From Escherichia phage vB_EcoM_ESCO10: a DNA stretch of 64,000 nucleotides. The stretch is from the sequence record OM386655.1. One strand, 5' to 3'. A program made the translations under genes and the position numbers. The notes under the pieces were generated by a model that searched no databases, was not told the origin of the DNA, and saw nothing but the letters and a program-made list of their open reading frames with translations. This document shows positions 18,858 to 20,105 of this stretch, piece by piece (position 1 is the first letter of the stretch; each line of letters opens with the position of its first letter).

Positions 18858-19082
18858 TTAACAGCTACTTGGATACCAGATTTTACCATCAGCTTGAGCA
18901 ACGAAGGTTCGACCAGCTTCTTCACCGTAACAAGAGCTATTCAGCCAATCTTCAAGACGAACTTCACCATCATAATCGTCGAGCTCGACACCAAAATCTT
19001 GAGCAGAAGCCATATCTTTAACTTTCTTATACAATGCGGCCAGTTCAAGAGCTGCTTTTTCTAATTCATTAATATCAGACAT
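18858..19082 (-). CDS. small protein, tandem paralog family member A (C-terminal ...WYPSSC)
   Basis: 74 aa; C-terminal tail related to neighbours; stop overlaps AAGG SD of the next gene. Confidence 0.55.
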   Translation of the reverse strand: MSDINELEKAALELAALYKKVKDMASAQDFGVELDDYDGEVRLEDWLNSSCYGEEAGRTFVAQADGKIWYPSSC

Positions 19083-19091
19083 TTTTATTCC

Positions 19092-19304
19092 TTAGCAAGA
19101 CATAGAGGAAGTAAACCAAAAACCTTCACCATCATTAATACCATAATCACCGCGAACCCAGCCATAATCTTCGTATTCAGGATTCTTCGGTGAAATATAT
19201 TGCCCACGTCCAGAAACATGGAAATCTTCACCAGTTTCATCAGCCACGCTCTGACCTTTACGTACCAGTTCACGGATTTGTTTTTCAATTTCATCAATAG
19301 TCAT
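19092..19304 (-). CDS. small protein, tandem paralog family member B (C-terminal ...WFTSSMSC)
   Basis: 70 aa; shares internal AD..G..F..Y.SP motif with D and E. Confidence 0.6.
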   Translation of the reverse strand: MTIDEIEKQIRELVRKGQSVADETGEDFHVSGRGQYISPKNPEYEDYGWVRGDYGINDGEGFWFTSSMSC

Positions 19305-19313
19305 TTTATTACC

Positions 19314-19511
19314 TTAACATTCGTAAGAGGAGGACACCCAAGAGGTACCGCTAATAGTAATGCATCCATTATAAAGCGTAATATGCCTGTCTAAGTCACG
19401 AACACCATCAATATAGATATCAGCTTCTTCACGTTCTTCTTTACAAATCTGGATAACATTTTCAATAGCTGCGGCTGCAGTACGGATTGCACAATCTAAT
19501 TCACGAGACAT
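19314..19511 (-). CDS. small protein, tandem paralog family member C (C-terminal ...SWVSSSYEC)
   Basis: 65 aa; conserved 3' end and junction nucleotide sequence. Confidence 0.6.
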   Translation of the reverse strand: MSRELDCAIRTAAAAIENVIQICKEEREEADIYIDGVRDLDRHITLYNGCITISGTSWVSSSYEC

Positions 19512-19520
19512 ATAATTTCC

Positions 19521-19802
19521 TTAACATTCAGAAGAAGAGGACACCCAACCACCTTTTTCAAGGTCTGTGGTGTAGTCGTGGGTGTTAACAATGGCGTATT
19601 GAGGCTCACCATAGTTTTCCCAATGAGCAAGGTCGGCTTTCAGGGCGCCAGGAGAATAATAGTCACCGCCCATACCGCGAGCAGGGTATATATTAAAATG
19701 AGTCTCATATTTGTCTGCAATTTCCTCAGCTCGGCGAATAGCTTTATGGATTTCATTTACTGCGCTGGCCAGTTCTTTATTTTTACTATAATCGTTCATC
19801 AT
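19521..19802 (-). CDS. small protein, tandem paralog family member D (C-terminal ...GWVSSSSEC)
   Basis: 93 aa; conserved 3' end/junction; shared motif with B and E. Confidence 0.6.
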   Translation of the reverse strand: MMNDYSKNKELASAVNEIHKAIRRAEEIADKYETHFNIYPARGMGGDYYSPGALKADLAHWENYGEPQYAIVNTHDYTTDLEKGGWVSSSSEC

Positions 19803-19811
19803 AATAAACCC

Positions 19812-20105
19812 TTAACACATCTCAGAAGAGGAGACCCAAGCACCAGAAGTAACGATACCGTTTTCATCGACTTCGCCGCCCTTGTTTTCAATTTCATCAC
19901 GCATCCAGCGAGAGCATTCATAACCAACCGGATAATAGGTACGTCCAGAACCATATTCACCTACGTCAAACGAGACACCATACTTATCTGCAATAATGGT
20001 AGCTTCATTCTCGATATGGTCTTGGGCCCGAAGAAGTTTGCTGATAGCGTCCGTTGCGGTTTGAACGTCATTGTATTCAGGGATTACGATTTCAATTTTA
20101 TTCAT
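19812..20105 (-). CDS. small protein, tandem paralog family member E (C-terminal ...AWVSSSEMC)
   Basis: 97 aa; ATGA overlap with upstream gene. Confidence 0.6.
   Translation of the reverse strand: MNKIEIVIPEYNDVQTATDAISKLLRAQDHIENEATIIADKYGVSFDVGEYGSGRTYYPVGYECSRWMRDEIENKGGEVDENGIVTSGAWVSSSEMC

Follow-up and report, generated by a model that had tools for sequence, protein, structure and literature searches.

The closest described counterparts of the genes analyzed here are systems in which a short C-terminal tag, carried by different proteins, is served by one dedicated enzyme: LPXTG/sortase, PEP-CTERM/exosortase and GlyGly-CTERM/rhombosortase. A second point of reference is provided by the Pol-beta-type nucleotidyltransferases, which have a G-S...D-x-D...E signature and transfer a nucleoside monophosphate (NMP) to a hydroxyl; GlnD, GlnE, MntA and DrrA display this signature and have specific protein substrates (PII, glutamine synthetase, HepT and Rab1, respectively). 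We analyzed a window of 64,000 nucleotides from Escherichia phage vB_EcoM_ESCO10 (record OM386655.1), in which five consecutive small genes on the minus strand (A to E, positions 18858–20105) encode proteins with a common C-terminal tail that ends in Cys. A gene for a protein with the domains DUF7277 and DUF7275, referred to below as the enzyme, lies on the same strand, 901 nt downstream of gene A (Table 1). The array is one case of a widespread, phage-only module of two parts, the chemistry of which is unproven. We lean, by a little, toward the view that the enzyme recognizes, and probably covalently modifies, the tail tag of the small proteins as its clients.

The module is defined by how regularly its two parts occur together. 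For a systematic linkage test, 80 IMG/VR loci were retrieved with the enzyme as query. At least one tail open reading frame (ORF) is present in 78 of the 80, with 1–6 per locus and a single copy in 23 loci; one of the two loci that lack a tail ORF is cut by the contig end. In a set of 90 loci, which adds 10 retrieved by hand, the tail is carried by 232 of the 4363 ORFs that share the strand of the enzyme and by 5 of 4512 on the opposite strand, and all five come from the Escherichia phage VR5 locus, which is stored reversed, leaving no true opposite-strand case. Relative to the enzyme gene, 205 tail ORFs of the IMG/VR loci are upstream and 2 are downstream. The nearest tail gene is separated from the enzyme by a median gap of ~350 nt, and some pairs overlap. 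When neighboring genes are clustered, the tail family appears in 23 of 29 enzyme lineages, and any other family in 5 of the 29 at most. The reverse test, which started from the DNA pattern for WVSSSxxC followed by a stop codon, yielded three new evaluable contigs, each with the enzyme immediately downstream.

Ten lineages were checked by hand, and all of them have tail genes beside the enzyme: Dhakavirus, Moonvirus, Marfavirus, Mosigvirus, Pseudomonas Otagovirus, E. coli Phapecoctavirus, the jumbo Erwinia phage Kaldavass, Aeromonas Biquartavirus, Stenotrophomonas Menderavirus and Acinetobacter Lazarusvirus. In two of these lineages the surroundings of the pair are wholly different; the copy in Aeromonas phage L9-6 is located after nrdD. 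These comparisons show that tail genes and enzyme form a same-strand, usually adjacent, mobile module across unrelated phage lineages. The first-pass annotation, made from the letters of the window, had ventured as speculation that a C-terminal Cys after a Ser-rich stretch could be a modification or recognition tag. The tight genomic link to one enzyme gene lends this guess strong, though indirect, support. In several unrelated phages, genes related to nicotinamide adenine dinucleotide (NAD) are found within a few kb of the module (flanks of loci L006, L008, L009 and L010); they encode a nicotinamide phosphoribosyltransferase, a ‘cytidyltransferase’ of the nicotinamide mononucleotide type, a Sir2 deacetylase and an ADP-ribosyltransferase. 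Their proximity could be a coincidence in accessory-rich regions.

With tblastn, the enzyme is detected in 733 phage records from many lineages. The genomes of 185,579 bacterial and archaeal species contain 6 loci, all in metagenome bins, and the four long ones among these all have tail genes upstream of the enzyme. T4 has neither part of the module: none of the 1262 ORFs of its whole genome bears the tail motif, and there is no DUF7275 match. The window derives from a Dhakavirus, a T4-like phage, and the region is 95% identical to VR5. A block of ~4.1 kb with 11 genes (16008–20101) sits between the homologues of e.2 (15414–16007) and e.3. In T4, e.3 and e.2 are adjacent at the syntenic site, and the block is therefore missing there, in line with the first-pass annotation, which did not recognize the family from T4. 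The best T4 match to the small-protein profile, Tk.1, is not significant (E-value 0.0086). Tk.1 (62 aa, tk.1, NC_000866 60346–60534) contains SFEISSEYGDAETYY, which is like the gene E loop SFDVGEYGSGRTYY, and may be a tail-less distant relative of the small proteins. A literature search, thin on subscription journals, returned nothing on the tail, the PHROG and DUF families or their pairing.

The tag has the consensus G-G-W-h-[S/P/A]-S-S-x-x-C, with Cys as the last residue. Among 129 distinct tails, W, S, S and C are invariant, and Cys is the final residue in 125. The Ser pair is separated from Cys by two residues in 102 of these tails, by none in 17 (A type), by one in 4 and by three in 6. 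In 163 distinct coding sequences, the invariant Ser pair is encoded by TCT, TCC, TCA, TCG, AGT and AGC, with AGY accounting for 35–37%, and the invariant Cys by both TGC and TGT. Since the full codon sets of Ser (six) and Cys (two) occur at invariant positions, the tail must be selected at the protein level; it is a protein tag and not a product of the junction signals alone. The first-pass annotation would have given up its proposal had the conservation proved confined to those signals, and the codon mix places it beyond them.

Of the 515 ORFs of at least 30 aa in the window, the five array ORFs have the ending W..SS.{0,2}C and the other 510 lack it. Cys-terminated ORFs account for 8 of the 196 ORFs of at least 60 aa, and the array genes are five of those eight. 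Alignment of the motif reveals two copies in gene A, an internal DWLNSSC and the terminal IWYPSSC, and the doubled motif is kept in the A-type orthologues of Merlin, Marfa, Aeromonas L9-6 and a Phapecoctavirus. Other phages have the same tail on bodies of 52 aa and of 139–172 aa. Of 158 family members, 63 have no Cys other than the terminal one, which in these proteins is therefore not part of an internal disulfide or zinc site. Possible degenerate tails adjoin true ones: an Acinetobacter AM101 protein ends in ...NWSNSES, without Cys (L010, ~3700–3876), a 170-aa Phapecoctavirus protein ends in ...LWQSSDQ (L008, 3164–3676), and one contig has ...PSSANC and then reads through (L090, 88–357).

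The five minus-strand ORFs and their tails proved to be exactly as first reported, and the internal motif noticed in B, D and E is real, in agreement with the family alignment. The description of the genes as five paralogues has to be abandoned. With the tails removed, hhalign relates E to D with 98.3% probability (E-value 1e-14), E to B with 96.9% and D to B with 94.6%, and profile-profile comparison detects no significant similarity of the A and C bodies to E/D/B or to each other. Judged by these alignments, E, D and B alone are demonstrably homologous. The array is not five copies of one gene, because at least three body types share only the tag. By the same comparison, the tag is shown to be carried by at least three unrelated bodies in the window (the E/D/B, A and C types), and it is portable, since A and C without their tails are unrelated to E/D/B.

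Recent local duplication or gene conversion, which the first-pass annotation had proposed, does not account for these types. Orthologues of the E, D, A, B and C types recur in distant phages, namely Moonvirus, Marfavirus, Mosigvirus, Aeromonas and Klebsiella phages, Phapecoctavirus and a jumbo phage, and on sequence grounds the types are separate, old orthologue groups. D was found by tblastn in 281 phage records, and C has orthologues in Mosigvirus and Marfavirus. The claim that gene ends and junctions are conserved in nucleotide sequence stands in part. There is a 48-nt direct repeat in four copies, each of which spans the tail-coding end, the stop codon, a TAAGG Shine-Dalgarno sequence and the next start codon. 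The four array junctions read TG[TC]-TAA-GG-N7-ATG with 9-nt spacers. Over the last 33 nt of a gene and the 15 nt downstream, identity reaches at most 36 of 48 positions (D versus C), and the gene bodies are 42–55% identical. This conservation is clear for E/D/C and weaker for B/A, where the Ser pair of A is encoded by AGT-AGC.

Four of the proteins match phrog_899 (E, 8.6e-22; D, 1.4e-21; B, 8.4e-14; A, 4.3e-10) and C matches phrog_4882 (1.6e-36), so the tail-bearing proteins are split between two families, both of unknown function. Pfam, NCBIfam and PADLOC return no match for the small proteins, and a sequence search of the PDB finds no solved structure of the family. The expectation that no well-characterized protein group would be matched is thus confirmed. 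When 1.84 billion representative proteins were searched exhaustively with a profile, no more than 32 clusters were recovered, 30 of which are proteins of 71–105 aa; word-indexed homology searches gave mostly close relatives. In an alignment of 38 sequences, the internal motif takes the family-wide form AD..G..F..G.YG.G.TYYP.G. An N-terminal helix ending in AE.IAD..G..F leads into the Gly-rich loop G.YG.G.TYYP.G, which is followed by an acidic/aromatic linker and the tail G.W-V-S-S-S-x-x-C. Gene E is the founding type, with helix, GEYGSGRTYYP loop, β-hairpin and tail, and the D loop is the variant ARGMGGDYYSP. The array proteins are shown to be small, acidic and cytoplasmic: their isoelectric points are 4.2–5.0 in the window (family median 4.4), and they are hydrophilic, with grand averages of hydropathy of -0.13 to -0.86.

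Structure prediction and comparison, one of the checks proposed at the outset, was carried out for protein E. The AlphaFold2 (AF2) model built from the family alignment is confident, with a predicted local distance difference test (pLDDT) score of 92.5 and a predicted template modeling (TM) score of 0.77. It depicts a small α/β domain composed of a long helix (residues 14–42), two short strands, a second helix (66–74), a β-hairpin (84–92) and a short terminal turn. The invariant Trp, W90, is placed in the last hairpin strand (89–92), and the last block is the least confident (mean pLDDT 74). No fold match is found in the PDB (best E-value 0.58, TM score <0.32), and the only matches among viral predicted structures are uncharacterized relatives (for example RB69 ORF139c and Aeromonas phage 31 ORF064c).

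The enzyme matches PF23942 (DUF7277, N-terminal; 7.3e-27, 94.3 bits) and PF23940 (DUF7275, C-terminal; 1.8e-76, 256.6 bits), for both of which the Pfam gathering cutoff is 27 bits, and both domains are matched in all ten aligned homologues. These ten diverse sequences agree without exception at G6, S7, D25 and D27 and almost without exception at E69, in a region of alternating strands and helices. The pattern GS.A...D.D is retained in at least 90% of 29 representatives with less than 60% mutual identity. The enzyme thereby has the pattern of Pol-beta-type nucleotidyltransferases, in which hG[GS] is followed at a distance of about 10–18 residues by [DE]h[DE]h and, in a later strand, by a third acidic residue, and records of Acinetobacter phages label its gene ‘putative nucleotidyltransferase’. 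The DUF7275 domain is predicted to be helical. Its invariant residues in the ten homologues are H128, H174, D193-H194-D195, H198, E240, E241, E248, R249 and C272, together with the block K-V-C-T-S-I-T-S-G-W-F-R, and they look like a metal-dependent active site. A sequence search of the PDB gives no match for the whole enzyme or for its N-terminal domain. T4 NrdC.3 and NrdC.11 were considered as homologues of the enzyme and rejected, as they have no similarity to it.

We favor a ‘tag plus dedicated enzyme’ system because tail genes sit just upstream of the same enzyme gene in dozens of phages that are unrelated to one another and infect Gram-negative bacteria. The tag would be the element by which the enzyme recognizes its set of client proteins, and most likely also the site of covalent modification. 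The variable bodies would give each client a different job or different targets, probably in early host takeover or counter-defense. Speculatively, the first step would most likely be O-nucleotidylylation of a tag Ser, because Ser-Ser provides the only invariant hydroxyls in the tag and Pol-beta-type enzymes target hydroxyls. The terminal Cys, for its part, might bind a metal in DUF7275, a domain rich in His, Asp, Glu and Cys, or might join follow-up chemistry. The scheme in its complete form, with a phage-only enzyme that modifies the tag on small effectors by Ser O-nucleotidylylation, possibly followed by elimination and a thioether with Cys, for takeover or counter-defense, is offered tentatively, and we would sooner expect some part of it to fail.

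Several points weigh against the tag-and-enzyme model. Searches of Pfam, NCBIfam, PADLOC and PDB sequences place the enzyme in no characterized family, and its single-sequence AF2 model has a pLDDT of 37.7. The nucleotidyltransferase assignment is putative, drawn from motifs and from the annotation of others. Interaction and modification are deduced from linkage, which would allow the small proteins to be regulators or subunits as well as substrates. A spacing of 0–3 residues between S-S and C, and the internal copy in A-type proteins, argue against a very rigid chemical requirement. In the window itself, three unrelated genes part the array from the enzyme. Finally, distant actinophage DUF7275 homologues (Streptomyces Annadreamy and Gordonia BrutonGaster) have no Cys-tailed neighbors, and the link is therefore limited to the proteobacterial-phage clade and does not extend to every DUF7275 protein. 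Downstream of these homologues are two tandem small paralogues that have F.K.GYY.SWD..WDG..EV.P in common and no Cys tail (L132, 4630–5322; L133, 2765–3606). This arrangement suggests that small proteins of other kinds also serve as partners of the enzyme family.

Among the alternatives, the one that survives best treats the small proteins as non-covalent partners of the enzyme, be it as specificity subunits, activators or inhibitors. The tail would plug into the enzyme, for instance with the terminal Cys on a metal site, and the bodies would steer it to RNA, tRNA or host proteins. This reading draws on the linkage data that also underlie the covalent model, one to six clients per enzyme would suit interchangeable adaptors, and the invariant Cys together with the His/Asp/Glu residues of the enzyme could build a metal site. 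There is also precedent in several toxins of the nucleotidyltransferase fold, which small partner proteins control. We nevertheless consider non-covalent partnership unlikely, since four invariant residues, among them Ser-Ser and a terminal Cys, are seldom required of a docking peptide across such divergent phages.

It is more doubtful still that the tail matures in the manner of a peptide that is made on the ribosome and modified after translation (RiPP), with Ser converted to dehydroalanine and Cys either adding to it, as in a lanthionine-like thioether, or being decarboxylated, to leave a folded protein with a cyclized or reactive cap at its C-terminus. What is invariant is precisely the Ser pair and the Cys, and in 102 of the 129 tails a Ser lies three positions before the Cys; S-x-x-C is a typical lanthionine ring pattern, and the formation of aminovinyl-cysteine needs a C-terminal Cys. 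The enzyme could supply Ser activation, with NMP in place of phosphate or glutamate, and a metal-bound thiolate. The gene neighborhood does not fit, as there is no LanB/LanC/LanM/LanKC, flavin decarboxylase or radical S-adenosylmethionine gene among the window neighbors. The architecture is the reverse of known precursors, with the modified end constant and the remainder variable, the bodies are folded domains rather than leader peptides, and A-type tails have S-S-C without a spacer.

We assign a similarly low probability to a tail that is a structural or metal-binding element, in which Trp belongs to the core and Ser and Cys bind a metal or form an intermolecular disulfide, and that owes its proximity to the enzyme to a shared pathway or to mobility. 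W90 is probably a core residue in the model of E, and the two motifs of A-type proteins could pair. A fold-specific core element would not be expected on unrelated bodies, however, and it is the last block of the model that is predicted with the least confidence. Without a direct functional tie, the ratio of 205 upstream to 2 downstream tail ORFs, and the absence of any other shared neighbor, are hard to explain. The last alternative, a tail produced by nucleotide constraints such as translational coupling or gene conversion, could invoke the 48-nt junction repeat, the 36 of 48 nt shared by D and C and the TAA-GG overlap in four junctions, but its probability is negligible: the codon analysis has already refuted it with six Ser and two Cys codons at invariant positions, in gene A the Ser pair is encoded by AGT-AGC and the junction differs, and the motif persists in Pseudomonas, Stenotrophomonas, Acinetobacter and Aeromonas phages with other junctions as well as in single-copy genes (23 loci).

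The features of the locus are collected in Table 1. The start of gene E overlaps the stop codon of the upstream e.3-like gene through ATGA. Array and enzyme are separated by three small genes, which are lineage-specific and lie outside the conserved module. The 78-aa protein encoded directly upstream of the enzyme has a C-T-I-C-P sequence and is also present in Mosigvirus APCEc01; neighbor clustering did not find proteins of this type in other enzyme lineages.

Table 1. Coordinates of the array, the enzyme gene and adjoining features in the 64,000-nt window.
Feature	Position	Strand	Size	Ending or family	Basis or remark
e.3-like membrane protein gene	20102–20473	-		phrog_2330	VR5 annotation ‘similar to T4 E.3’
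Gene E	19812–20105	-	97 aa	tail ...GAWVSSSEMC	ORF and translation
Gene D	19521–19802	-	93 aa	tail ...GGWVSSSSEC	ORF
Gene C	19314–19511	-	65 aa	tail ...TSWVSSSYEC	ORF; body of different type
Gene B	19092–19304	-	70 aa	tail ...GFWFTSSMSC	ORF; short relative of E/D
Gene A	18858–19082	-	74 aa	tail ...IWYPSSC	ORF; body of different type
Direct-repeat family, four copies	19072–19119, 19294–19341, 19501–19548, 19792–19839		48 nt		repeat search; 60–81% identity
Small gene between array and enzyme	18491–18820	-	109 aa	phrog_9796	unknown function
Small gene between array and enzyme	18226–18426	-	66 aa	phrog_14244	unknown function
Small gene between array and enzyme	17979–18215	-	78 aa	phrog_3723	unknown function
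Partner enzyme gene	16998–17957	-	319 aa	phrog_2141	Pfam DUF7277 + DUF7275

A scan of the region for promoters and terminators gave nothing above chance. The best sigma-70-like match, TTTACA-17-TATAAT (11 of 12 positions; 21670–21698, minus strand), is at the annotated start of a 222-aa ORF, the family match of which begins only at residue 26. This putative site could direct an early transcript through the e.3-like gene into the array. On the opposite strand, a 197-aa ORF (19578–20171, plus strand) overlaps D and E. Since the products of the minus-strand genes are conserved, this ORF almost certainly does not represent a gene. In the ESCO10 record, the proteins described here go under the names ‘inhibitor of prohead protease’, ‘helicase’, ‘group I intron endonuclease’, ‘DNA helicase’ and ‘baseplate hub subunit’; other records label D ‘tail completion protein’ and give A as ‘major capsid protein’. 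The record names agree with neither size nor sequence, and they have the look of automatic annotation that has shifted.

If the tag-and-enzyme model is correct, the module would represent a novel type of system for protein modification, one that is confined almost wholly to phages. It would assign a function to several of the many small early genes that lack one in T4-like phages, jumbo phages and other large phages, and its short, portable tag, together with the enzyme dedicated to it, could serve as a tool.

Set beside the systems described at the outset, the locus has features of several and the full set of none. In sortase-type systems, a membrane helix and basic residues come after the tag, and the tagged proteins are secreted and have signal peptides, whereas here the tag ends at Cys. 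The proteins of the array have no signal peptide or membrane segment; their N-termini are polar and helical, and they are acidic and hydrophilic. In further contrast to sortase-type systems, the only Pfam matches of the enzyme are DUF7277 and DUF7275, and it is encoded by lytic phages. With GlnD the enzyme shares, beyond the signature, a putative transferase domain fused to a second, His/Asp-rich domain, yet searches gave no profile or structural match to the GlnD, GlnE, MntA or DrrA families. In protein-nucleotidylylating enzymes, the known acceptors are Tyr residues in loops, and the candidate acceptor here is a C-terminal Ser-Ser-x-x-Cys. None of the four is known to have a multi-client tagged family. 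An MNT/HEPN pair is not indicated, as the 38-sequence alignment contains no conserved Arg/His motif (R-x(4-6)-H) and PADLOC returns no match for the enzyme.

The resemblance to lanthipeptides, labionins and aminovinyl-cysteine peptides lies in the essential Ser and Cys residues within a short C-terminal stretch, with Cys at the end. None of the 15 window neighbors scanned against Pfam belongs to the LanB/C/M/KC/L or LanD families; the constant part here is the end that would be modified and not the leader, and the carriers are folded proteins of 65–170 aa. T4 internal head proteins have a conserved N-terminal capsid-targeting sequence that ends in an (L/I)-x-E protease site, which the array proteins do not possess: no such site is found in D, C, B or A, and a candidate in E (I-P-E, residues 8–10) was rejected, as it is I-P-K in the close E-type orthologue P0013. 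Among database families, the window proteins are members of phrog_899, phrog_4882, phrog_2141 and DUF7277/DUF7275, which record no function, tail or link. Even without covalent chemistry, the strict pairing defines a two-component module that is not linked in PHROGs or Pfam, and a block of ‘hypothetical proteins’ becomes a directly testable hypothesis.

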